Source: Beijerinckiaceae bacterium
Lineage (GTDB): Bacteria > Pseudomonadota > Alphaproteobacteria > Rhizobiales > Beijerinckiaceae
NCBI GenBank assembly: GCA_004298435.1
Contig: SCSF01000072.1
Location: forward strand, 3,271-67,270
Direction: 5' to 3'
Length of the DNA stretch: 64,000 nt
The notes beneath the pieces were generated by a model that was not told the DNA's origin, did no database searches, and saw nothing but the letters and a program-made list of their open reading frames with translations. Every line of letters starts with the position of its first letter. The first letter of the stretch is position 1. Shown here one piece after another: positions 16,232 through 27,094 of this stretch. The translations under genes and the position numbers were made by a program.

Positions 16232-17433
16232 CGGCGGAAGGTCCTGAAGAACAACCGCCGACGCCGACGCCCGTCGTACCGCCCGATCTGCGGCTTCGGG
16301 GCGAACGGCCGCGCGTCACACGCTTGTCGCGCAGGGTGCTGATTGGCCTGGGCGCCGTTTCGGCGCTCGCCGTCGCGGGCGCGCTCGGCTACGCGCTCCA
16401 GACTCGCAACGCGGCGCAGAGCGGCCAGGAGCTGCTTTCCACGCAGAACCGTCCCTCCGCCGAGGGCCTCGCTGGCCTGCCGAAAGACTATACCGGCCTG
16501 CCACGCCAGGCGCCCCCGCTTGGCCCGCCGCTGCCCGGCGATCTCGGCAAGCCAATCCTGAACGCAGGGGCAGCGCCGAACACGGTAGCGCCCGCGACCA
16601 CGCCTGATCCGGAGGCGCAGCGCCGGGCCCAAGAGATCGAGGCGGCGCGGCTCAGCCGCCTCTTTGCCCAGACCAATCAGCAGCCCCAGCCCGTCGGGCT
16701 CGCCGCGCCGGCTGGGATCGGGACGACGACGGGTCCGACTCCCGCACCGCCAGTCGACGCCGGCGCCGCGCAGAACATGCAGGACCGCAAGACGACCTTC
16801 CTCAATGCGTCGACGGACAAGCGCACGGTCAGTCCAGACCGGCTCGACGCGAAGGCCTCGCCTTATGTCGTGCAGGCCGGCACTGTGATTCCCGCCGCGC
16901 TCATCACGGGCATTCGTTCCGATCTGCCTGGTCAAATCACTGCCCAGGTGACGGAGGCGGTCTATGACAGCCCGACCGGCAAATATCTTCTGATCCCGCA
17001 GGGCGCGAAGCTGATCGGCCAATACGACAGCTCCGTCGCTTTCGGGCAGTCGCGCGTCCTGCTGGTTTGGACCCGGATCATCATGCCGGATGGCGGCTCG
17101 ATCGTGCTGGAGCGTCAGGCCGGCGCCGACACGCAGGGCTACGCCGGACTAGAGGACGAGGTCGACAACCATTGGGGCATGCTGTTTAAGGCCGCCGTGC
17201 TCTCGACGCTGCTCAGCGTTGGCGCCGAGGCAGGCACCAGCCAGAATGAGAACAACCTCGTGCAGGCGATTCGCAGCGGCGCGTCCAACAGCATCAGCCA
17301 GACAGGCCAGCAGATCGTCCAGCGCCAGCTCAACATCCAGCCGACCTTGACCATCCGGCCGGGCTTCCCGGTCCGTGTTATCGTCACGCGCGATCTCGTG
17401 CTGGCGCCCTACGGACGGGGAGCAACGCCATGA
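16228..17433 (+). CDS. trbI: TrbI (VirB10)
   Basis: AGTVIPAALITGIRSDLPG, GYAGLED, PTLTIRPG. Confidence 0.95.
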   Translation: MTAEGPEEQPPTPTPVVPPDLRLRGERPRVTRLSRRVLIGLGAVSALAVAGALGYALQTRNAAQSGQELLSTQNRPSAEGLAGLPKDYTGLPRQAPPLGPPLPGDLGKPILNAGAAPNTVAPATTPDPEAQRRAQEIEAARLSRLFAQTNQQPQPVGLAAPAGIGTTTGPTPAPPVDAGAAQNMQDRKTTFLNASTDKRTVSPDRLDAKASPYVVQAGTVIPAALITGIRSDLPGQITAQVTEAVYDSPTGKYLLIPQGAKLIGQYDSSVAFGQSRVLLVWTRIIMPDGGSIVLERQAGADTQGYAGLEDEVDNHWGMLFKAAVLSTLLSVGAEAGTSQNENNLVQAIRSGASNSISQTGQQIVQRQLNIQPTLTIRPGFPVRVIVTRDLVLAPYGRGATP

Positions 17434-17663
17434 CGAAACTCAAGCTCGGGGCGCTCGCCGACGATAAACCCGTTAAGATCACGGTCGAGTTACCTGCCGC
17501 CGTTCATCGCGACCTTGTTGCCTACGCTGAGGTGCTCGGACGAACGACAGGGCAGGTGATCTCCGACCCGGCCAAGCTGATCGTGCCGATGATCGAGCGG
17601 TTCATGGCGACGGACCGAGCGTTCACGAAAGCGCGGCGAGGGGCCTCGATCCAATCCCATTAG
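17430..17663 (+). CDS. DUF2274-family protein
   Basis: MTKLKLG...KLIVPMIERFMATDRAF; terminal gene of the trb operon. Confidence 0.85.
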   Translation: MTKLKLGALADDKPVKITVELPAAVHRDLVAYAEVLGRTTGQVISDPAKLIVPMIERFMATDRAFTKARRGASIQSH

Positions 17664-18580
17664 GTTCCGGCCGAGAGATCCGGATGGCGCTCGCGGAGCA
17701 TAGCGAGAAACGGTTCGAGCGTCGGATTGTTATTCGCCTGTCGCCAGTAAGCGGTAAAGTCGAGACGTGTCGGCCCTTCCTCTTCGTGGACCTCGCGATA
17801 GACTACACCCTCGTAATGGACGCCTGTCGCTCCTTCAAGCATCAGCAACATACCATATTCGGCGCCAACCAGACTCAGCAGGCGATCGAGACTAACGTCG
17901 TGATGTAGTATCCGCTGTGGGCCAGAGCCATGGAGTTTTGCGGTCAACAGTCGTTCGAGTTCGGGTCCCGGACCGCGTTGAGGGAATAGCACTCGCTCAT
18001 TTACAAGATCAGACCAGTTGATCATGCTACGAGCGCAGAATGGATGCTGCGCCGGCATAGCAACGATAACGCGCTCGCTCCAGAGCGGCAGGCGCCGATC
18101 GTCCCAGCTTGGGCCACACGTGGTCATGATGGCGATGTCGATCGCGCTGGTTATCAGGTCACACATTAACCTGTCATGCCCACCGTCGATCGTGTAAACG
18201 TCCACGTCCGGAAAGCGTCGATGATGGTCAGTTAATGTGGCACGCAGGTTGCCAGTCGAGAGTGAGGCATAAACGCCGATTGTGAGTTGCCCGTTTTCGC
18301 CGCGTCCACGAGTTCGCAGTCTTGAGAATACGGTGTCGACTTCTTCAACGATTCGCCGCGCCGCCTCAAGGAACTCATAACCCGCAGCGGTTGGCCGTGT
18401 GCCTCCGTTACTCCGTTCGAAAAGCGTGGCACCCAAACGATATTCAAGGTCGCGCAGCCGCCGGCTGAGGGTTGATTGCCGAATGTGAAGCGCCTCTGCA
18501 GCTTGCCTTAGACTTCTATGCTTAGCTGCAACAATTACCCATCTCAGGTCCCGAAGCTCGATCGCCGCCGCCGTCATCAT
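17660..18580 (-). CDS. LysR-family transcriptional regulator
   Basis: N-terminal HTH LRDLRW...SLRQAAEAL..RQSTLSRRLRDLE; 306 aa. Confidence 0.92.
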   Translation of the reverse strand: MMTAAAIELRDLRWVIVAAKHRSLRQAAEALHIRQSTLSRRLRDLEYRLGATLFERSNGGTRPTAAGYEFLEAARRIVEEVDTVFSRLRTRGRGENGQLTIGVYASLSTGNLRATLTDHHRRFPDVDVYTIDGGHDRLMCDLITSAIDIAIMTTCGPSWDDRRLPLWSERVIVAMPAQHPFCARSMINWSDLVNERVLFPQRGPGPELERLLTAKLHGSGPQRILHHDVSLDRLLSLVGAEYGMLLMLEGATGVHYEGVVYREVHEEEGPTRLDFTAYWRQANNNPTLEPFLAMLRERHPDLSAGT

Positions 18581-18749
18581 TTCTCATCAGCTACACGGAA
18601 GCGTGAGAAATTTGGTGAATTGTCGCTGTCGGAGCGACACCAGCATCAAGACGATGGCTGCGAATTCGCAGACAAGGCCTCCCCCAGTCGAGATCGGCGA
18701 TGAAGCCCTCCGCCAGAGTGAAGGGACCTTGAGCAGCACCGAGGGGGAT

Positions 18750-18911
18750 GCAAAAGACACAGCAATCTCCCGGCTTCGGCCACAAGGTTTCGGCGCAGCA
18801 CGTGCAGGTATAGAAGAACTGGCAAGCGTCGGTCGGCATTGTTTCCGCCTTCATGCTTCCGCAGTTCGGGCAAGTGATTGCGGATTGCGAGATTACCGAT
18901 ATTCCGGCCAT
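18750..18911 (-). pseudogene. GDCCVxC-motif Cys-rich small protein, apparently truncated after GDCCVFC (ORF runs on to 18591)
   Basis: ITCPNCG..ETMPTDACQFFY.C..C...KPGDCCVFC. The tail I recall for the family (SYGSVPCPP) is replaced by unrelated sequence. Confidence 0.65.
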
Positions 18912-18921
18912 CAGCCGCCCC

Positions 18922-19617
18922 TCACATGGCCAACGCCGGAACCCAGAAAAAATAGGCGTTCAGCATATAGAGCCCCGACGCAATCAGCGTCACGCCGCCC
19001 AATGTCTCGAAGGCACGCCGATACGCGGCCAAGCCGTGTAAATTCTCGAGCCAGCCGATGCTGATAGCGCCAAGAGCGACTGGAAGGGCGCGGCCTACGG
19101 CAAACGCGAGCAGAAGAACCGCCCCAGTCCAGGGTGAGCCGAGTCCTGCCGCCGCCCCGAGCAGCACGACGAGCGCCGGCGTGCAGAACGGACAGACCGC
19201 GATCGAGAACACCGCGCCAAGGACGAACGCGCCCCATGAGGCAGTGGGACGTCTCGCTCTCAATGCGAATGCTGGTAGCGGCAGGCGAACCCATCCCGCC
19301 CAGGTGAGCCCGAGAATGATCAAGAGCGGGCCGAGGACGAGCCCCCAACCTCGACCCACGAGAGACGCTACCCAGTGGCCGCCTAGTCCGGCAACGAAGC
19401 CCAATGCCGCGTGGGTGACAAGCATGCCAAGGATGAACAGCGCTGCGAAGAGGATTGCCTGCTTCCTCTCGCGGGCTCTGGTCACGTAGGCGAGCGATAC
19501 CGGAATTGAGGCTAGCGCCACCGGATTGAAGCTGAAGACCAGGCCGGTCAAGAAGCCGATGCCGACGGCCGCTATGCCGGCCTGCTCAACCGCCTGTCGG
19601 AGTGCATCGGGTTCCAT
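18922..19617 (-). CDS. CcdA/DsbD-like membrane protein
   Basis: Six hydrophobic segments; GLVFSFNP, FSIAVCPFCTP, LAFAVGRALP motifs. Confidence 0.8.
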   Translation of the reverse strand: MEPDALRQAVEQAGIAAVGIGFLTGLVFSFNPVALASIPVSLAYVTRARERKQAILFAALFILGMLVTHAALGFVAGLGGHWVASLVGRGWGLVLGPLLIILGLTWAGWVRLPLPAFALRARRPTASWGAFVLGAVFSIAVCPFCTPALVVLLGAAAGLGSPWTGAVLLLAFAVGRALPVALGAISIGWLENLHGLAAYRRAFETLGGVTLIASGLYMLNAYFFWVPALAM

Positions 19618-19618
19618 A

Positions 19619-19879
19619 TTATTTCCCCGGCGCGCTTCGACGGATCAACGCGTCGCGCAGCTGATGCGGCGTGGGTAGGGAGGAGAACAGGAGCTCGCCA
19701 TCAACGACCACTGCTGGGAGGGTCAGCACGCCGAGTTCGACCGCGTGATCCAGATCCTTGAGCACATTCAGTTCGTGCCATTCGATGCCCGTGACCGTTC
19801 GTTCTGCGACGGCCTTGAGACCCTCTCGCGCGGCAGCGCATTGAGTGCAACCTGGAGAATAAAACAATTCGATTTTCAT
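19619..19879 (-). CDS. Small thioredoxin/glutaredoxin-fold protein
   Basis: FYSPGCTQC CxxC; LPAVVVDG cis-Pro region. Confidence 0.85.
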   Translation of the reverse strand: MKIELFYSPGCTQCAAAREGLKAVAERTVTGIEWHELNVLKDLDHAVELGVLTLPAVVVDGELLFSSLPTPHQLRDALIRRSAPGK

Positions 19880-19882
19880 GAT

Positions 19883-20302
19883 TCAGTGAGCCTGCCTCGT
19901 CACGTCGGCTTGGTCCAAGGCCGCCAAAATCGTGCATTCCTCGACCGGATGCGTTTCATTGGCGCAATCGGCAATGAGGTAATCGAGCGCCTTGGACATG
20001 GACTTCATCGCGCGGATTTTGTGTTCGAGTTGAAGTTTCTTTTCGATCGCGTGCTTGCGAACATCACCGCAACAGGCGGCATCGCGGCTCCGCAGGATGA
20101 GAAGCTCGCGGATTTCCGCAAGCGTGAAACCGCAATGCTGGGCCTGCTTGATGAAGTGGATACGCCGCGCGGAATCCTTGTCATAGAGCCGGTAGCCGCT
20201 TTCACTCCTATCGGCCGGATCGATCAATTTTTCCCGCTCGTAGTAGCGCAGTGTGTCGACGCTGACTTCCGCCAGTGCCGCGAGTTTGCCGATCGTCAAC
20301 AT
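19883..20302 (-). CDS. MerR-family metal sensor, ZntR/CadR type
   Basis: MerR HTH (TIGKLA..DTLRYYE); C77/C78, C113, H118, C123 reproduce the ZntR ligand spacing. Confidence 0.9.
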   Translation of the reverse strand: MLTIGKLAALAEVSVDTLRYYEREKLIDPADRSESGYRLYDKDSARRIHFIKQAQHCGFTLAEIRELLILRSRDAACCGDVRKHAIEKKLQLEHKIRAMKSMSKALDYLIADCANETHPVEECTILAALDQADVTRQAH

Positions 20303-20318
20303 ACCTACCTCCTAGTCG

Positions 20319-20350
20319 ACCCTAGACCCTGAAGTATACTCCAGGGTCAA
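20319..20350 (-). promoter_or_regulatory. MerR-type promoter with 20-bp spacer and ZntR-like operator
   Basis: Minus strand TTGACC-N20-TAGGGT; 22-bp near-perfect palindrome ACCCTGGAGTATACTTCAGGGT at 20326-20347. Confidence 0.85.
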
Positions 20351-20384
20351 GCGCGTCGTACGGGATATCGGGCCGCCTGCCGCG

Positions 20385-21653
20385 CTAGGATTTCGATCGG
20401 ACGTCCGCGCCAGCCTGAGTCACCCCGGCGGCGGATGGAACCGCTTGGGACGGAACCTCGGAACGGAACAAGGCGAAGGACAACACCGCGAGGATCAGCT
20501 CAATGACTGCAAACAGTCCAAACGCGACCCCAAAACCGAACCGAAGCAGCGCGCCGAAGATGAGGCTTCCGAGACCGAAGCCGACAAAGAGCGTGAAGAC
20601 GTTCAAGCCCATTGCCTGCCCGGCGCGTTTGCCGCCGAGGGAGGTGACGATTCCCCCGAAGAGCGGCTGGGTCATGTCGTAGCCCAGGGACAGGACCATC
20701 GCGACGACGGGGGCGAGGATCATCGGAAAGCCGAGCAGCAGAGCGGCCGCCGCGACGGCGCTCAGAACGAGGCCAATCGGTATCAATCGGGCGCGGCCCC
20801 AGCGATCGGCCGCTCGGCCGATCACCGGCCCGAACAGGAAGCCCGGCACGCCATAGCCGAGGAGGGCCAAGCCGATACCGACGGGTCCAATGCCGTATTG
20901 CCGCTCGAAATACACGCCGAGCCAGGTGAACACGCCGGAATGGAACATGGAGTTGACCAGGACATAGCCGTAGGTGCGCTGCCCGCGCGGTGTGCCAAGC
21001 AGATCCTTGTAGCTACGAAAGAGGTCCCGCAGCGTGCCTGTCACCGGCTGAACCGCGGCGGCAATGACAGCTCGATAAGGCAGGAGAACCAGGAGGAGCA
21101 CCGCACCGGCCGCGCCGACAGCGACGAACAGACCTTGCCAGCCGACGAACGGCACGATCATCGCGCCCAGCGGTGAACCGAACGCCATGCCGCCGGCCAT
21201 CGCGCCGAACAGCCAGCCAAGCGGTCGGCCCCGCTGTTCGTAGGGATAGAGTCGGCCCACCAGCGCCAACGCGAGCGGAACCACGCCGCCTGCGCCGATC
21301 CCGGTCGCCATCCGCCACAGCGCCAGCTGTTCAATGGAGTGCGCTGTTGCGGTCAGGATCGTGAGCGCCGCGAACGCCGCGAGGGACGTAAACATCACGC
21401 GGTGGATGCCGAGCCGATCCGCCAGAAGGCCATACGCGAGGGTCGCGATTCCATAGGGGATCAAGTATGCCGGCACGATGAGCCCGACCGTCTCTACCGA
21501 CGTTCCGAACGTATTCGACAGCGCCGGTATGATCGGCGCCACCATGTAGGCTTGGAAAAAGATGATGAAGGTTGCCGCCGCGAGCATCCTGAGGAGCCGC
21601 TCGCGCTGGCGCTCGCCGATCGCCGCCGGCATCGTTTGCTGAACTTCAGTCAT
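20385..21653 (-). CDS. MFS transporter
   Basis: 12 hydrophobic segments; GLLADRLG and GRAADRWGR motif A. Confidence 0.92.
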   Translation of the reverse strand: MTEVQQTMPAAIGERQRERLLRMLAAATFIIFFQAYMVAPIIPALSNTFGTSVETVGLIVPAYLIPYGIATLAYGLLADRLGIHRVMFTSLAAFAALTILTATAHSIEQLALWRMATGIGAGGVVPLALALVGRLYPYEQRGRPLGWLFGAMAGGMAFGSPLGAMIVPFVGWQGLFVAVGAAGAVLLLVLLPYRAVIAAAVQPVTGTLRDLFRSYKDLLGTPRGQRTYGYVLVNSMFHSGVFTWLGVYFERQYGIGPVGIGLALLGYGVPGFLFGPVIGRAADRWGRARLIPIGLVLSAVAAAALLLGFPMILAPVVAMVLSLGYDMTQPLFGGIVTSLGGKRAGQAMGLNVFTLFVGFGLGSLIFGALLRFGFGVAFGLFAVIELILAVLSFALFRSEVPSQAVPSAAGVTQAGADVRSKS

Positions 21654-21666
21654 TTCATTCCCTTAC

Positions 21667-24132
21667 TCAGACCGCCTGCACTGACGCGGACGCGATCGGG
21701 CGCCCCACGCTGCGGATCGCGTCGAAAAAGAGCCGCGGGCTGCCCCACAGCGAGTTGAAGAAGATCGCCGTGACGCTCACCGCCATTGCAACCATCGCCC
21801 ATATCGGGTGGATCAGGCCGGTGGCGGCGAGCGGAATGCCGGCGCCGTTGAAGAGGAAGGCCAGCACGACGTTTTGAACCATCTTCCCATAGCTCCGGCG
21901 GCTGATGTCACGGGCGATGGGGAGCGCAGCCAAGCGGTTCGACAGGATGATGATGTCCGCCGCCTCGATCGCGATATCGGTGCCGCCGCCCATGGCGATG
22001 CCGATATCGGCTTGCATGAGCGCCGGCGCGTCGTTGATGCCGTCGCCGACCATCGCCACGCGGGCCTTGGCTTGCATCTCCCGCACGATCCCGGCCTTGT
22101 CCTGCGGCAGCACGCCCGAATGCACCTGGTCAACACCGACCTCGCGCCCGACCCGTTGCGCCGCACGGTCGTTGTCGCCCGTGACCAGGATCGTCTTGAG
22201 ACCGGCATTGCGCAGTGCCGCGACAGTCGAGATGGCGTCGGGTCGGAGCGTATCGCCCAAAGCGACGACACCCAGCGCGACCCCATCCCGCGCGACGGCG
22301 ATCACGGTGCGTCCTTTGGCTTCGAGAGCTTCGATGGTGTTGTGAAGATGTGTGAGGTCGATGTTTCGGCTGGTAAGAAACCGCGGGCTTCCGACAAGAA
22401 CCTCGCCGGCGTCGATGCGCGCGACGACACCCTTTCCAGGGAACGCCTCGAATGATGTGACATCCGGCGGCGTCGCACCGCGCTCGAACGCCGCCTTGAC
22501 CACGGCCTGGGCGAGCGGGTGCTCCGAAGACGCTTCGGCGGCGGCAGCAATTGCGAGAAGCTCCGTCTCCCTTACCTCGACGGCTTCGATCTCACGCACG
22601 ACGGGGCGGCCCTCGGTGAGCGTGCCCGTCTTGTCGAACACGATTTGTTTCACCGTGCGGAAGCCCTGGAAGGCTTCGCCCGTCCGCATCAGGATGCCGT
22701 GCTCGGCGGCCTGGCCGGCGCCGCGCACGATGGAGAGCGGCGCCGAGATGCCGACGGCACAGGGATAGCCCATCACGAGCACGCTGAGGCCGGCGAAGAC
22801 CGCGCGTTCAACGTCAATCTGTCCGGTGCCGAGCCAGGAGCCGACGAGCCAGCCAATGACCGCAAGGGCGGCGATCCCAAGGACGGTCGGGGTATAGACC
22901 CGCAGCACGCGGTCGACGAGATGGAGGAGGCCTGGCTTCAGTGCCCGCGCGTCCTCGACATGGCGGATCACCTGGTGCAGGAAGCTGCCTTCGCCGACCG
23001 CCGTGATCGTCACCAGGAGCGTGCCGGTGCCGTTGATCGAGCCGCCGATGACCGCATCGCCCTCGGTCTTTTCGACCGGAATCGACTCGCCGGTCACCAA
23101 CGATTGATCGACCCCCGAGCGACCGCTCACGACCGTGCCATCGACAGGCACCCGCTCGCCTGGGCGAATGCGCACGAGGTCGCCAACTTTGACGTCCTCG
23201 ATCGGCACTTCGACCTCCGCGGTCCCACGCACGACGCAGGCGGTCTCCGGCTGCAGATCGAGGAGACGCTTCACCGCCTGCGAACTCCGTGTCTTGACGA
23301 TGAGCGACAGCCACTCCGAGAAGATGTGGTACGTGCCGACCATCACCGAGACCGCGAAGAACGGCGCGGTCGGATAGCCAGGCCGGTTGAGCACGAGCCC
23401 TATGATGCCGCCGGCCATGCCCGCGAACGCGCCGATCTCGAGCAGCACATGCTGGTTGATAATGCCGCGCCGAAGTGCCTGGAAGGCCATGTGGAGGATG
23501 TGCCGCCCGATGCCGAATATGAGGACAACGGCCAGGGCACCAGCGAGCCATGGCGCGACCCCGGTCAAATATCCCTCCAGATTGAGATAGAGCAAGGAGA
23601 GCGCCATGACGACGAGGCCCGAGAAGGCCCCAATAGCCACCCACAACCCGGTCGAGCGCAGGACCAGGAAGACGAACCCGCCCAGGCTCAGGCACACCAG
23701 CGCCGGCAGAAAGCCGATCCAGCCCACCTGGGGATCCGCGATGATCGGGATGGAGGCAACGCTGAGCACGACGGCGAGGACGAAGCGCCGGGCCTCACGC
23801 ACGAGATCGCGCTCTTCTTCTTCGAACCCCCTGAGCTTGCGGGGGTCGGAGATGGTGTAGCCGATGTCACGGAGGGTCTGCAGCAACTCCTCAGGGCGGG
23901 CGATGGCCGGGTCGTATTCGACGAGCGCCTGCTCGTGCGTCAGACTCACTGCCACCTTGTCGACGCCGGGCATTCGCCCGAGTGCCTTCTCGATGGTGCC
24001 GGTGCAGAGGGAGCAATGGAGCCCACCGATCCGCGCCCGGATCTTCCGACGGTCAGCCCTGGTCGAGGGCTCTTCGCTCCACGGCCGGAACGAGGATGGA
24101 ACTGTTGTCGCGACACGCATCGTCATCTCCAT
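21667..24132 (-). CDS. Heavy-metal P1B-type ATPase with non-canonical YPC motif
   Basis: HMA GLHCSLC, TGES, DKTGT, SEHP, GDGINDAPAL; TM6 GYPCAVGIS. Confidence 0.93.
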   Translation of the reverse strand: MEMTMRVATTVPSSFRPWSEEPSTRADRRKIRARIGGLHCSLCTGTIEKALGRMPGVDKVAVSLTHEQALVEYDPAIARPEELLQTLRDIGYTISDPRKLRGFEEEERDLVREARRFVLAVVLSVASIPIIADPQVGWIGFLPALVCLSLGGFVFLVLRSTGLWVAIGAFSGLVVMALSLLYLNLEGYLTGVAPWLAGALAVVLIFGIGRHILHMAFQALRRGIINQHVLLEIGAFAGMAGGIIGLVLNRPGYPTAPFFAVSVMVGTYHIFSEWLSLIVKTRSSQAVKRLLDLQPETACVVRGTAEVEVPIEDVKVGDLVRIRPGERVPVDGTVVSGRSGVDQSLVTGESIPVEKTEGDAVIGGSINGTGTLLVTITAVGEGSFLHQVIRHVEDARALKPGLLHLVDRVLRVYTPTVLGIAALAVIGWLVGSWLGTGQIDVERAVFAGLSVLVMGYPCAVGISAPLSIVRGAGQAAEHGILMRTGEAFQGFRTVKQIVFDKTGTLTEGRPVVREIEAVEVRETELLAIAAAAEASSEHPLAQAVVKAAFERGATPPDVTSFEAFPGKGVVARIDAGEVLVGSPRFLTSRNIDLTHLHNTIEALEAKGRTVIAVARDGVALGVVALGDTLRPDAISTVAALRNAGLKTILVTGDNDRAAQRVGREVGVDQVHSGVLPQDKAGIVREMQAKARVAMVGDGINDAPALMQADIGIAMGGGTDIAIEAADIIILSNRLAALPIARDISRRSYGKMVQNVVLAFLFNGAGIPLAATGLIHPIWAMVAMAVSVTAIFFNSLWGSPRLFFDAIRSVGRPIASASVQAV

Positions 24133-24210
24133 TCATCGCAGTTATCGACCCAGTGTCTGGACCCCGCGACGCGCTTTCTGGTTGAACCCACGCTCATGCG
24201 CTGAATTCGA

Positions 24211-24426
24211 TCAGTGCCGACCCGCGACGCGAAAGCCGGGCTTTTGGATCGCCGCCACGAGGCGATCCTCGCCGGTACTTTGCGGGTCATAGAGGATGCG
24301 GGCTTGACCTTCTTCGAACGAGACCGTTGCCATCTGCACGCCTGGCTCACTTTCGACCAGGGTCTTGATGGTATTGGCGCAGCCATCACAGTTCATGCCT
24401 TCGATCTTGAAAGTTGCCGTTTTCAT
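24211..24426 (-). CDS. HMA-domain metallochaperone (CopZ-like)
   Basis: IEGMNCDGC motif; 71 aa; GGAG RBS. Confidence 0.9.
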   Translation of the reverse strand: MKTATFKIEGMNCDGCANTIKTLVESEPGVQMATVSFEEGQARILYDPQSTGEDRLVAAIQKPGFRVAGRH

Positions 24427-24624
24427 ATTTTGCTCCATTACAGGTACTATCGGCATAGCCAGATAGCTTTCTCCACTGTTTGCGTCCGAGTGTATCTGCT
24501 CAATCTTCACGTGAGGGGCACACTCGGTAACTTGCGGCGCATGGCGCTGCGGCAAGTGAGCCTCCGGTGGCGTTAGGACCTGAGAACACTTGACCTCACA
24601 GCATGGCCATACCGCGACAGTTCA

Positions 24625-24656
24625 ACGCTAGGCCTTGGAGTTAACTCCAGAGTCAA
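24625..24656 (-). promoter_or_regulatory. Second MerR-type 20-bp-spacer promoter/operator
   Basis: Minus strand TTGACT-N20-TAGCGT with dyad GGAGTTAACTCC in the spacer. Confidence 0.8.
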
Positions 24657-24824
24657 GCGGATTCCGCCACGTCTCGGCGAGCCTGATGATGGCGGTTGTT
24701 GCCGCGCTGCGAGCAGAGCTGAAACTGAGATCCTGCGCGTTCACGAAGGCTTGGTGAGTATTTTCGGCAGAAGACGGTCTCGATCGGCAATAATCGGTTG
24801 AGTATCAAGAGCGGCCATTCGACT

Positions 24825-25058
24825 AGGGAGCGGCAGGCCACTGGGGTTGAAGATGCGGGTCTCGGTGCCGAAGGCTTCAAGAAGGCGCGCGGCCTCCTGG
24901 GCCTGCAGCCGGCTGAAAGACCGCTCGCGCAGAAAGCCGTACAGCAACAGGATGCGCGGTGGGTGCGTCGGCGCGTGCGGCAGTAGCGCAGCCGTCGTCG
25001 GACGTTCGAAAGCATCAGGCTCGATGTTCGGCACATCCACCAAGTCAGGCGCCTGCAT
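24825..25058 (-). pseudogene. arsH: 5' fragment of ArsH (NADPH-dependent FMN reductase)
   Basis: PNIEPDAF...THPPRILLLYGFLRERSFSR...EAARLLEAFGTETRIFNPSGLPLP, then similarity stops. Confidence 0.8.
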
Positions 25059-25940
25059 CAACGCGCCTCTTTGACGATACGCGGTGCTACTTGGCCGCCA
25101 AGTCGGGTTCGTCCCTGAACGCTGGGTCTGCGAGCGCAGCTTCGTAGGCGAGTTTGGCCGATTGCTCGTCGCCGAGCGCGGAGAAGGCGTTTCCGATCGT
25201 GTAGTGCAAGCTGCCGGCATGGTGGCGGCCGCCGTCGAGCTTGGATCGAAAGTAGCCGATCGCCTCCTCAATCCGTTGCGGGTGTTGGCTCATACTCGGC
25301 ATCCCGAGGTTGATCTCGGCCATGTAGCAGGGACCCATCGAGTCGCTACTGGCGCCGAGCGCTGCCCCAAATTTGTCGAACCCGGCGCTGATCACTTCGT
25401 CAGCACCTTGTTCGTAGAGCCGCCTCAAGATCTGGCCAGCCCGCTCCGGATCCTCCGGGACATGGACATCTGGAGCAGCCCTCAGAACCTGCCGGGGCAG
25501 ATCCGCCGGGCTCGCGCCGGATTGTTCGATCCGTCGCTCGCGCGAAGACCTCGCCCCCGATTGCGCGAGTGCCGCGAGCCGGACGAGGCGCCCGATGGTC
25601 AACTCCTCGACGAAGGAGACCGTCAGCGATTGCTGCTCGGTCCACGTCTTCCCGCTGTGTTCGTACTGGCGAAGGACGCTGTCGACGGGGCAGATGCGCA
25701 GCGAGCCTGTCGGCACATGATAGCAGGCGTAGAAGCTGTACCCCTGCATCAGCAGATAGTTCAGGTTGGTGCGACGCATCTCAACGCTGAGCGACCCGTC
25801 CGCATTTAGCGCCCGCTCCGTTCCCTTCCCTTAAGTTGGACCTGGACCCTGACATTCGTGGCCCGACCGTCGTCGATCTGGACTTACCCGGAAAAAATGG
25901 AGGGACTTTCTGCTAGCGTTTAACGCGACAGGAGGACCCG

Positions 25941-26231
25941 ATGGGCAAGCAGGAACGACGGATTTTCACGGAGGATTTCAAGAAGGAAGCGGTGCGCCTA
26001 TGCGAAACGAGCGGCCGCACAATCTCACAAGTCGCCGATGATCTGGGGATCGGGCTATCGACGCTGACACGGTGGAAGAGACGTTATCGGGAAGCCGACC
26101 TACTGGCCGGTCCGCATGAGGATACAACCAAGGAACTGACACGACTGCGCAAAGAGAACGAACTGCTTCGCCAGGAGCGTGAGATTTTGAAGCGGGCCGC
26201 AACTTTTTTCGCCAAGGAGGGAAGTCGATGA
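25941..26231 (+). CDS. IS3 OrfA (HTH)
   Basis: FTEDFKKEAVRL...QVADDLGIGLSTLTRW; coiled-coil tail. Confidence 0.93.
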   Translation: MGKQERRIFTEDFKKEAVRLCETSGRTISQVADDLGIGLSTLTRWKRRYREADLLAGPHEDTTKELTRLRKENELLRQEREILKRAATFFAKEGSR

Positions 26232-27094
26232 GATTCAAGCTCATTGATGAGGCGAAGAAGGAATTCCCCGTGCATCGTCTATGCAGTGTCCTTGACGTCA
26301 GCGAGAGCGGGTATTTTGCTTGGAAGAGGCGGCCTGCCAGCCGCCGGCAAAATGAAGATCTGGTGCTGCTGGCGCACATCCGCTCGCAGTTCTCAATGTC
26401 CAACGAGACTTACGGCGCGCCACGCATGCACGTCGAGCTCAAAGAAGACGGCCTCGCTATTGGCCGTCACCGCGTTGCCCGCTTGATGCGCGACAATGGC
26501 CTGAAGGCACTACAAAAGCGGCGCTACAAGAAAACAACGGACAGCGGCCATGCCAGCCCAGTCGCCGCCAACCTGCTGGATCAGGACTTTATATGCGATA
26601 GAACCGATCAAAAATGGGGCGTCGATATCAGCTATATCTGGACGGCCGAAGGCTGGCTCTACTTGGCAATCGTGCTTGATCTCCATTCCCGGCGCATCAT
26701 CGGATGGGCGACGAGCAACAGGTTGAAGAAAGACCTGGCGCTGAATGCCCTGCGGCGAGCGATTGCGTTACGCCAGCCGCGGCCAGGCCTGATTCATCAT
26801 TCCGACCGCGGAAGTCAGTACTGTTCTCATGATTACCAGAAACTATTGAAGGCGCACGGTATGACGGTCTCGATGAGCGGCAAGGGTAATTGCTTTGACA
26901 ATGCCATGGTCGAAACCGTGTTCAAGACGATCAAAAACGAGTTGGTCTGGAGAACGATCTTCCAGACTCGCACAGCCGCCGAACGGGCCCTTGGCCGATA
27001 CATCGACGGCTTCTACAATCCTCGCCGGCGACACTCCGCATTGGGGTATAAATCGCCGACGGCATTCGAGGCCGAAATGGCCATCACAGAGTGA
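26228..27094 (+). CDS. IS3 OrfB DDE transposase
   Basis: WGVDISYI, HHSDRGSQY, CFDNAMVETVF; lies in the -1 frame relative to orfA. Confidence 0.95.
   Translation: MRFKLIDEAKKEFPVHRLCSVLDVSESGYFAWKRRPASRRQNEDLVLLAHIRSQFSMSNETYGAPRMHVELKEDGLAIGRHRVARLMRDNGLKALQKRRYKKTTDSGHASPVAANLLDQDFICDRTDQKWGVDISYIWTAEGWLYLAIVLDLHSRRIIGWATSNRLKKDLALNALRRAIALRQPRPGLIHHSDRGSQYCSHDYQKLLKAHGMTVSMSGKGNCFDNAMVETVFKTIKNELVWRTIFQTRTAAERALGRYIDGFYNPRRRHSALGYKSPTAFEAEMAITE

Follow-up and report, generated by a model that had tools for sequence, protein, structure and literature searches.

A mobile, putatively metal-inducible gene module associated with mercury-resistance loci and carried on a Trb-type conjugative element

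Mercury resistance in its textbook form consists of import and reduction (MerT/MerP together with MerA) and not of efflux, and to our knowledge no P-type ATPase is dedicated to mercury. Export is the rule for P1B pumps; those of the P1B-1 class, which transport Cu(I), carry CPC in helix 4(6), YN in helix 5(7) and MxxSS in helix 6(8). The ligands of the metal sensor ZntR are C79, C114, C115, H119 and C124. The combination of metal handling with proteins of the thioredoxin (Trx)/CcdA type has a precedent in the Salmonella Scs system. A further one is a ZntA-CzcD-PCuAC-Sco-CcdA cluster on an alphaproteobacterial island, which was annotated without functional work (PMC13707694). ArsG has been listed among efflux transporters (PMC9144182) and is described in NCBIfam as an efflux permease for aromatic, thiophilic organoarsenicals; it is a precedent for a CcdA-type fold that serves as permease for a thiol-seeking toxic element. 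Here we describe a cluster of seven genes in a 64,000-nucleotide (nt) stretch of contig SCSF01000072.1 from a Beijerinckiaceae bacterium (assembly GCA_004298435.1); this whole stretch is called the window. The cluster encodes a small HMA-domain metallochaperone, a P1B ATPase with an unusual YPC membrane motif, a major facilitator superfamily (MFS) transporter, a MerR-family regulator, a Trx-fold protein, a CcdA-like membrane protein with a CPxC motif and a cysteine-rich GDCCVxC protein. An earlier sequence-only reading of this DNA held that known metal operons never combine pumps with a Trx/CcdA pair, which is too strong given the island cluster cited above.

We propose that the cluster is a mobile module induced by and directed at a thiophilic metal, with Hg(II) as the likeliest candidate, carried on a Trb-type integrative conjugative element (ICE). 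From its sequence and gene context, we put the probability of this reading at roughly 0.55. That the substrate is some thiophilic metal is very probable, and that mercury is the physiological substrate or inducer is somewhat better than an even bet. Scanning with an alignment pattern of the CcdA-like protein, with one genome per species, identified 77 loci in other genomes, distributed over Alpha-, Beta- and Gammaproteobacteria plus one Sulfuricurvum. Forty-four of these had at least 5 kb of upstream and at least 3 kb of downstream sequence and are referred to as full-flank loci. The Trx-fold gene adjoins the CcdA-like gene in all 44, and a regulator with at least 48% identity to that of the window is likewise adjacent in 36; 27 loci have an ATPase with at least 60% identity, and 13 have an MFS gene. 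The conserved core is the near-invariant trio of regulator, Trx and CcdA-like genes, with the ATPase and MFS as frequent yet optional partners. A plasmid nucleotide search found the string HMA-ATPase-MFS-MerR-Trx-CcdA at ~78% nucleotide identity on Afipia carboxidovorans pOC167 and on Nitrobacter hamburgensis plasmid 2. The set is rearranged in Cupriavidus and on Paraburkholderia fungorum plasmids (HMA-ATPase-HMA / MerR-Trx-CcdA-MFS). In a protein search of 72,556 plasmids, 15 records had the ATPase (at least 60% identity) and 13 the CcdA-like protein; 11 plasmids had both, a few kb apart. Of the four ATPase-only plasmids three were inspected, and each has a more divergent CcdA/DsbD-like gene beside the pump. 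The sequence-only reading had staked its view of a single system on the genes occurring together elsewhere, and they do so across Alpha-, Beta- and Gammaproteobacteria. Plasmids, transposons and conjugative elements of soil, groundwater and bioreactor bacteria commonly carry the gene set.

The substrate had initially been left unnamed, and the neighbourhoods now point strongly to mercury. At least one mer gene lies within 9 kb in 30 of the 44 full-flank loci (merT/merP in 25, merA in 21), and only four of the 44 have neither a pump nor a mer gene. Label-free clustering of the open reading frames (ORFs) in the flanks placed the MerR family first (60 loci), followed by P1B ATPase (43), Trx (42), MerP (30), MerA (27), MFS (23) and MerT (20), with a resistance-nodulation-division (RND)/czc-like pump in 9 loci and arsenic genes in six or fewer. 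The rarity of RND/czc-like and ars neighbours and the top ranking of mer speak against an unspecific "metal island" effect. Directly after the CcdA-like gene come merT-merP in Afipia, in Nitrobacter and in at least eight other loci. The gene set of Paraburkholderia lies beside merB, with a chromosomal copy adjoined by merRTPA, and in Cupriavidus sp. USMAA2-4 merRTPA follows the set within ~3 kb. Aquabacterium commune has the arrangement merR-merT-merP-merA-merD-merE-[regulator-Trx-CcdA-like]-tnpR-tnpA (Tn3 family), so that here a mercury transposon of the Tn501/Tn21 type carries the trio; the string merA-merD-merE-trio recurs on a Pseudomonas contig. In a same-order random sample of 401 genomes, the CcdA-like gene was present solely in the window's own genome, and the genome-level comparison was hence made between the genomes reached via the loci and a phylum-wide background of 401 genomes. 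MerA above its curated cut-off was found in 37 of 50 trio-bearing genomes compared to 30 of the 401 background genomes, an enrichment of about 10-fold (odds ratio ~35, Fisher p ~5e-25). Finally, YPC-type ATPases with ~48% identity and the same helix motifs have merA 0.7-2.5 kb away on Haloarcula, Natrinema and Halorubrum plasmids, although these three have a module in common.

Two groups of loci deserve separate mention. Three haloarchaeal plasmid loci (L093, L104 and L105) share a module in which merA accompanies a YPC ATPase and a small HMA gene; neither merT nor merP is annotated there. At the merA position of this module, Halorussus limi (L103) has oxidoreductase fragments. The CcdA-like protein was also considered as the sole Hg importer of trio-bearing mer operons, and this was rejected, as the candidate loci L051 and L053 were read from their sequence to have a MerC-like gene. 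Both are merR-merC-merA-trio loci, and in each a conserved ORF of 148-180 aa without a Pfam match follows the CcdA-like gene (L051:6325-6771, L053:10608-11150).

In the window the cluster spans 18591-24426 on the minus strand (Table 1). As the sequence-only reading had it, seven co-directional, closely spaced genes are present; they form two units, and all of the stated domains were found with Pfam and NCBIfam. The gaps between neighbouring genes, from the HMA end to the GDCCVxC end, are 78, 13, 82, 3, 1 and 10 nt. The position 24656 that had been taken as the cluster edge belongs to the promoter, and the HMA gene itself starts at 24426, likely at an ATG with GGAG 6 nt upstream; its relatives are annotated with the same 71 aa.

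Table 1. Coordinates of the cluster, its promoters and the adjoining genes in the window
Feature	Position	Strand	Description
Promoter/operator P1	24625..24656	minus	TTGACT-ctggagttaactccaaggcc-TAGCGT; 20-nt spacer; ahead of HMA-ATPase-MFS
HMA metallochaperone	24211-24426	minus	71 aa; Pfam HMA 56 bits
P1B ATPase, YPC subfamily	21667-24132	minus	821 aa; TIGR01525
MFS transporter	20385-21653	minus	422 aa; Pfam MFS_1 172 bits
Promoter/operator P2	20319..20350	minus	TTGACC-ctggagtatacttcagggtc-TAGGGT; 20-nt spacer; ahead of regulator-Trx-CcdA-like-GDCCVxC
MerR-family regulator	19883-20302	minus	139 aa; Pfam MerR_1 + MerR-DNA-bind
Thioredoxin-fold protein, CTQC	19619-19879	minus	86 aa; Pfam Thioredoxin_3 39.6 bits
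CcdA-fold membrane protein, CPFC	18922-19617	minus	231 aa; Pfam DsbD_TM 51 bits, DsbD_2 42.6 bits
GDCCVxC-domain ORF	18591-18911	minus	106 aa; NF041374 71.3 bits
LysR-family regulator	17660-18580	minus	Pfam HTH_1 + LysR_substrate; 10 nt past GDCCVxC ORF
DUF2274	17430-17663		adjoins LysR gene and trbI

The matching MerR-type promoters that had been proposed for the two sub-operons were both recovered, each with a long spacer that contains an inverted repeat (CTGGAG-TTAA-CTCCAAGG in P1, CTGGAG-TATA-CTTCAGGG in P2). Searching the 3.09-Mb assembly with the strict P1/P2 motif gave exactly two matches, both at these promoters. In relatives, the operator motif is found 5' of the HMA/ATPase unit in 33 of 36 loci and 5' of the regulator in 35 of 58; the site ahead of the regulator is kept in most alphaproteobacterial loci. 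Since the motif occurs genome-wide only at P1 and P2, the two halves are likely to form one regulon, in agreement with the sequence-only reading. A scan of the cluster region found no ordinary sigma-70 promoters (16-18-nt spacer), and terminator-like matches in this region were no commoner than in shuffled sequence. In this element lineage, a leader of about 200 nt (window 24427-24624) separates P1 from the start codon of the HMA gene, and P1 lies 524 nt upstream of the ATPase start compared to ~300-350 nt in most relatives. The extra leader sequence is kept in locus L012 and in Mesorhizobium and includes a longer alternative ORF start. Outside the window, position C19:2348 of the genome has a MerR-type-looking site, TTGACC-TGGAG-ACCA-CTCCA, with a different spacing, which may belong to a different metal regulon.

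The regulator has five invariant cysteines (C57, C77, C78, C112 and C122) in 42 sequences, arranged as a CC...C-x9-C set. It reaches no NCBIfam cut-off: the best scores were to two ZntR models (127.9 bits with a cut-off of 143, and 116.3 with 167.95), followed by MerR TIGR02051 (107.4 with 150.85), CadR/PbrR (92 with 151) and CueR (90 with 147). His117, which aligns with the ZntR ligand, is conserved in only 4 of the 42 sequences, a single Cys stands at the ZntR C114/115 position, and the CC pair lies elsewhere. The initial description as ZntR-like is therefore right as to the best match, but the score is sub-threshold and the His ligand of ZntR is not kept. Next to YPC ATPases in Methylobacterium aquaticum and Thalassobaculum (L089:5248-5931, L090:4630-5304), MerR-family regulators carry a fused C-terminal HMA domain and have a MerR-like C...C-x8-C spacing.

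The ATPase passes the model for P1B heavy-metal ATPases, TIGR01525, at 562.8 bits (cut-off 346.25). It has an N-terminal HMA domain with the motif GGLHCSLC and normal DKTGT, SEHPL and GDGIND motifs. In contrast, it fails the equivalog models for CopA (NF007952, 449.5 vs 1316) and, lacking CPC, those for ZntA/CadA (NF033775, 385.9 vs 1240; NF008262, 426.9 vs 1005). Its membrane helices carry GYPCAVG, FLFNG and MAVSVT, of which YPC, FN and MA(V/A)SV are invariant in 36 co-located orthologues. Haloarchaeal and Deinococcus relatives share these YPC-type motifs (G-Y-P-C-A, F-x-F-N-G and M-A-(V/A)-S-V), and the N-terminal metal motif is G-L-H-C-S-L-C in bacteria and G-M-S-C-S-F-C in archaea and Deinococcus. 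One Cys, the Met and the Asn are thus kept in the membrane site. The window's genome has a separate CPC-type pump. A metagenomic pump with the YPC trimer, CopAL6, lowered Cu resistance and raised Cu content when expressed in an E. coli copA mutant (PMC11082258); it is likened to the window pump by the YPC motif alone. The HMA protein contains a GMNCDGC motif, has no signal peptide and is cytoplasmic, and it scores below the cut-off of every CopZ/MerP equivalog in NCBIfam. The MFS transporter has 12 helices, is DHA1-like and has no conserved cysteine; it reaches no NCBIfam cut-off, and its best sequence match in the PDB is the distant NorA (E 4e-16).

The Trx-fold protein passes PF13192 (39.6 bits, cut-off 24.8), has no signal peptide and is cytoplasmic. 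It matches the MTH895/ArsE family and falls below the MJ0307 equivalog TIGR00411 (50.5 vs 92.75). C11 and C14 of its PGC-x-x-C motif and the cis-proline P55 are conserved, and the middle dipeptide of the CxxC varies freely (GK, SH, SR, TQ, SE, PK and others), which would be more typical of a metal-binding CxxC than of a tuned redox enzyme. The CcdA-like protein passes PF02683 (51 bits, cut-off 27.1). In 67 sequences, an invariant F-N-P without Cys interrupts helix 1, and an invariant C142-P-x-C145-T-P interrupts helix 4. An AlphaFold2 model shows six helices with helices 1 and 4 broken mid-way (predicted local distance difference test, pLDDT, 66.7; predicted template-modelling score, pTM, 0.64). 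CcdA (5VKV) was its only convincing fold match with Foldseek (probability 1.00, template-modelling score 0.55), and a sequence search against PDB chains gave no match. By the positive-inside rule, loops 1, 3 and 5 are predicted to be cytoplasmic, with both motifs mid-membrane. The label CcdA-like thus holds for the fold, which is also matched by DsbD_TM, and fails for the electron relay, as the helix-1 Cys is absent in all 67 sequences. Because this Cys is replaced by an invariant Asn, the two-helix disulfide of CcdA/DsbD cannot form, and because it is missing in every member, a plain thiol-reducing conduit is doubtful. For the CPxC protein, the current annotation as "cytochrome c biogenesis protein CcdA" is probably a misnomer. 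Its nearest named relative in NCBIfam is ArsG; with the ArsG family model NF040495, the protein scores 59 bits (E 4e-16) and does not reach the cut-off of 200. A vicinal dithiol in an alternating-access scaffold is what would be expected of a carrier for a thiophilic metal.

Longer forms of the CcdA-like ORF (434-560 aa) occur in Gammaproteobacteria (L064, L068, L070-L072, L075 and L083), in which a classical two-cysteine CcdA half is fused ahead of the CPxC-type half. In L083, an exported TlpA-like CPGC protein is encoded just upstream. The fused ORFs keep both halves, suggesting that the electron relay and the CPxC domain do different jobs.

The GDCCVxC ORF scores 71.3 bits with NF041374 (cut-off 40), the match covering model positions 1-45 of 58 only, and it has no signal peptide. 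Intact orthologues are 65-80 aa long and end in GDCCVFC-SYGS(V/I)PCPP(I/V)Q. In the window, the Cys-rich N-terminal domain is intact up to GDCCVFC and is followed by an unrelated 52-aa tail in place of SYGSxPCPP. The closest element relatives have the same replaced tail, and two further relatives are frameshifted with loss of the cysteines. The domain reported earlier is thus present, but the gene is not intact and, lacking its C-terminal part, is probably a 3'-replaced remnant. Some matches to the family have an in-frame TGA or TAG, consistent with its "(seleno)protein" label. In a Reyranella metagenome-assembled genome (L016:4894-3600, minus strand), GDCCVxC is fused in one ORF to a MerB-like C-terminal region (CAIDALG), a fusion that, as read, would link the domain directly to organomercurial lyase.

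The cluster is cargo on a Trb-type ICE, with VirB8-, CagX- and TrbI-like genes at window 14.4-17.4 kb. Much the same element is present in Mesorhizobium genomes and several metagenome contigs, with the order integrase, ars operon, HMA, ATPase, MFS, MerR, Trx, CcdA, LysR, DUF2274 and trbI onward. Homology to Mesorhizobium-type elements begins at ~24825 of the window, roughly 170 nt upstream of P1. Upstream of the cluster, window 24741-25271 and 25941-27094 are occupied by the remnant of an ArsH-like (FMN_red) N-terminus and an IS3 element with two ORFs. Where the Mesorhizobium element has a full ars operon, the window copy seems to have lost this cargo or had it replaced. LysR was considered as an eighth member of the cluster and rejected. 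It is found at this position only in close ICE relatives, is truncated in several of them and adjoins DUF2274/trbI, and we therefore assign it to the ICE backbone.

For the gene products we suggest a division of labour, which as a whole is somewhat less likely to be right than wrong. The sensor would bind a soft metal via thiolates and turn on both promoters by MerR-type distortion of the DNA. The HMA protein would pass cytoplasmic metal to the ATPase, at its N-terminal HCSLC domain and single-cysteine YPC site, for expulsion from the cytoplasm. The CcdA-fold protein may be an electron carrier converted to a carrier or hand-over site for a metal-dithiolate, with the Trx-fold protein as a cytoplasmic partner that would either accept or donate metal or reduce the CPxC. 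The MFS transporter might export a metal-thiol conjugate or another small molecule. The module as a whole would act beside a classical merRTPA operon and not replace it. Import by the pump to supply MerA would be in keeping with the nearby MerT/MerP/MerC, with haloarchaeal loci in which no merT/merP is annotated and with the CopAL6 phenotype. In a wider view, which we regard as doubtful, YPC P1B ATPases would be dedicated mercury pumps and the CPxC CcdA-fold protein with its mini-thioredoxin a new class of mercury carrier; together they would make up a second arm of resistance in bacteria and archaea, one that is independent of the reductase and travels with mer transposons and conjugative elements. 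The substrate of the YPC pump would then be Hg(II) or possibly, given the single-cysteine site, a monothiol-binding organomercury.

Other metals could account for a system of this kind. A Zn/Cd/Pb efflux regulon would have a ZntR/CadR-like sensor and efflux by the ATPase and MFS, with the Trx/CcdA pair repairing or buffering thiols that Cd or Pb has damaged. The two ZntR models do top the NCBIfam list of the regulator, and the operator CTGGAG-N4-CTCCAG with its 20-nt spacer is like that of PzntA, but the sub-cut-off scores, the unconserved His ligand and the differently placed CC pair speak against such a sensor. The ATPase, far under the ZntA/CadA cut-offs, is nearer to Cu(I) pumps, and around the loci czc/cad-type neighbours are rare and mer genes dominant. 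In Mesorhizobium metallidurans, an adjacent Trx and CcdA-like pair next to ArdC, likened to ours by annotation only, was induced ~3-fold by Cd but did not respond to Zn (PMC3668242). We consider this explanation improbable. A Cu(I)/Ag(I)/Au(I) system, in which a CopZ-CopA-CueR-like efflux unit would be joined by accessory thiol proteins, appears distinctly improbable. It would agree with the CopZ-like HMA chaperone, with the nearest solved structures to the ATPase (ATP7B, AfCopA and LpCopA, ahead of ZntA and CadA), with the outer operator bases, which are like those of CueR-type sites, and with the position of some relatives in copper islands, e.g. in Thalassobaculum and, next to copK/copN, in Cupriavidus. 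Yet the ligands of the pump are changed throughout, the first Cys of CPC being Tyr, the Tyr of YN being Phe and the second Ser being lost, and the CopA equivalog score is about a third of its cut-off (449 vs 1316). The regulator has four invariant cysteines in its metal-binding set where CueR has two, and the same genome encodes a separate CPC-type pump. The one YPC-motif pump that has been tested gave no rescue of the E. coli copA mutant and raised its Cu content (PMC11082258).

The two operons might also have separate tasks. The second would then be an outward transmembrane reducing pathway that leads from Trx via CPxC to periplasmic thiols such as those of MerP, or to envelope repair, with the pump half as an independent efflux system. 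The CcdA fold of the membrane protein and the constant position of the Trx gene immediately upstream, with 1-nt or overlapping junctions, agree with this, as do the many relatives in which merT-merP come next, since MerP needs reduced cysteines, and the gammaproteobacterial fusions to a classical two-Cys CcdA half, including L083 with its exported TlpA-like CPGC protein. Against a reducing pathway stands the Asn in place of the helix-1 Cys in 67 of 67 members. The window encodes no exported thiol protein, as the HMA, Trx and GDCCVxC proteins are without signal peptides, and the highly variable CxxC dipeptide of the Trx is unlike that of tuned redox enzymes. The CPxC half is retained even when fused to a classical CcdA half, which suggests a separate job. 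On balance we hold this explanation to be rather unlikely.

Several points weigh against a mercury module. The window contains no merA, merT or merP; in its genome, classical merR-merT-merP-merA lie on another contig (C163), with the sole MerA above cut-off (596 bits). MerA is missing from 13 of the 50 trio-bearing genomes, and no mer gene was found nearby in 14 of the 44 full-flank loci. With many loci on related mobile elements and many genomes from contaminated sites, there were fewer independent events than the counts suggest; metal-resistance genes cluster on mobile islands anyway. Export of Hg(II) alongside its import by MerT/MerP looks like a futile cycle. By sequence, the regulator in its best model match and the operator resemble ZntR/PzntA, the solved structures closest to the pump are those of Cu(I) transporters, and the model of the CcdA-like protein is of only moderate confidence by its pLDDT. 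The M. metallidurans pair, if its likeness by annotation holds, is induced by Cd; the responses reported for it do not include Hg. The GDCCVxC protein was rejected as a mer-specific accessory, for 121 of 401 Pseudomonadota genomes, among them many small, marine-type ones, have the family, mostly without MerA; it is far commoner than MerA, and in only five of these genomes is it found less than 2 kb from merA. A literature search brought up no work on the trio or on GDCCVxC, none on YPC pumps in connection with mercury and no experiment on any member, so that substrate, inducer and direction are inferred by association.

The component families are familiar; what has not been described before is this pump subfamily, the CPxC type of CcdA-fold protein and the link of the two to mercury. 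If the module does handle mercury, a simple change of motif from CPC to YPC would set a new pump specificity, the CcdA fold would have been put to a new use, and better metagenome markers of mercury-resistance potential would become available. The current labels "cation-translocating ATPase", "thioredoxin family protein" and "cytochrome c biogenesis protein CcdA" conceal the mercury link.

Among known systems, the classical mer operon of Tn501/Tn21 (merR-merT-merP-(merC)-merA-merD-merE) shares with the window set a long-spacer promoter activated by a MerR-family protein, as well as proteins with cysteine pairs on either side of the membrane. The two are also physically linked, with the trio between merE and tnpR or merT-merP after the trio. 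In contrast to that operon, the window set has no reductase and no MerT/MerP and adds an ATP-driven pump and an MFS transporter, and its regulator differs from MerR (C...C-x8-C) in its CC...C-x9-C set, its operator and its score (107 bits vs a cut-off of 151). Like the CopZ-CopA-CueR unit, it is under MerR-family control and encodes a pump of the same overall build, with an HMA domain at the N-terminus and a small HMA chaperone encoded upstream, but this pump has YPC, FN and MA(V/A)SV in place of the CPC, YN and MxxSS of CopA, and the neighbours of the set are mer and not cus/cue genes. The CcdA-like protein resembles CcdA/DsbD, known from cytochrome c maturation and Scs copper tolerance, in its six-helix inverted-repeat fold and its adjacently encoded Trx-fold partner; unlike them, it has Asn for the helix-1 Cys, a CPxC in helix 4, no periplasmic acceptor encoded with it and control by a metal sensor. 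It belongs to a DsbD_2-type membrane family homologous to ArsG, which likewise goes with small thioredoxin-like proteins of the ArsE family, but it scores far below the ArsG model (59 bits vs 200) and its context is mer and metals instead of nitroaromatic arsenicals. E. coli ZntR-ZntA is similar in the top regulator model, in the operator half-sites and in the 20-nt spacer, whereas the window regulator is sub-cut-off with another ligand set and the pump is not of the P1B-2 type. Collectively, these comparisons suggest a gene set that resembles a mer/cop hybrid, yet fails the defining tests of mer, CopA, ZntA/ZntR, CcdA and ArsG.

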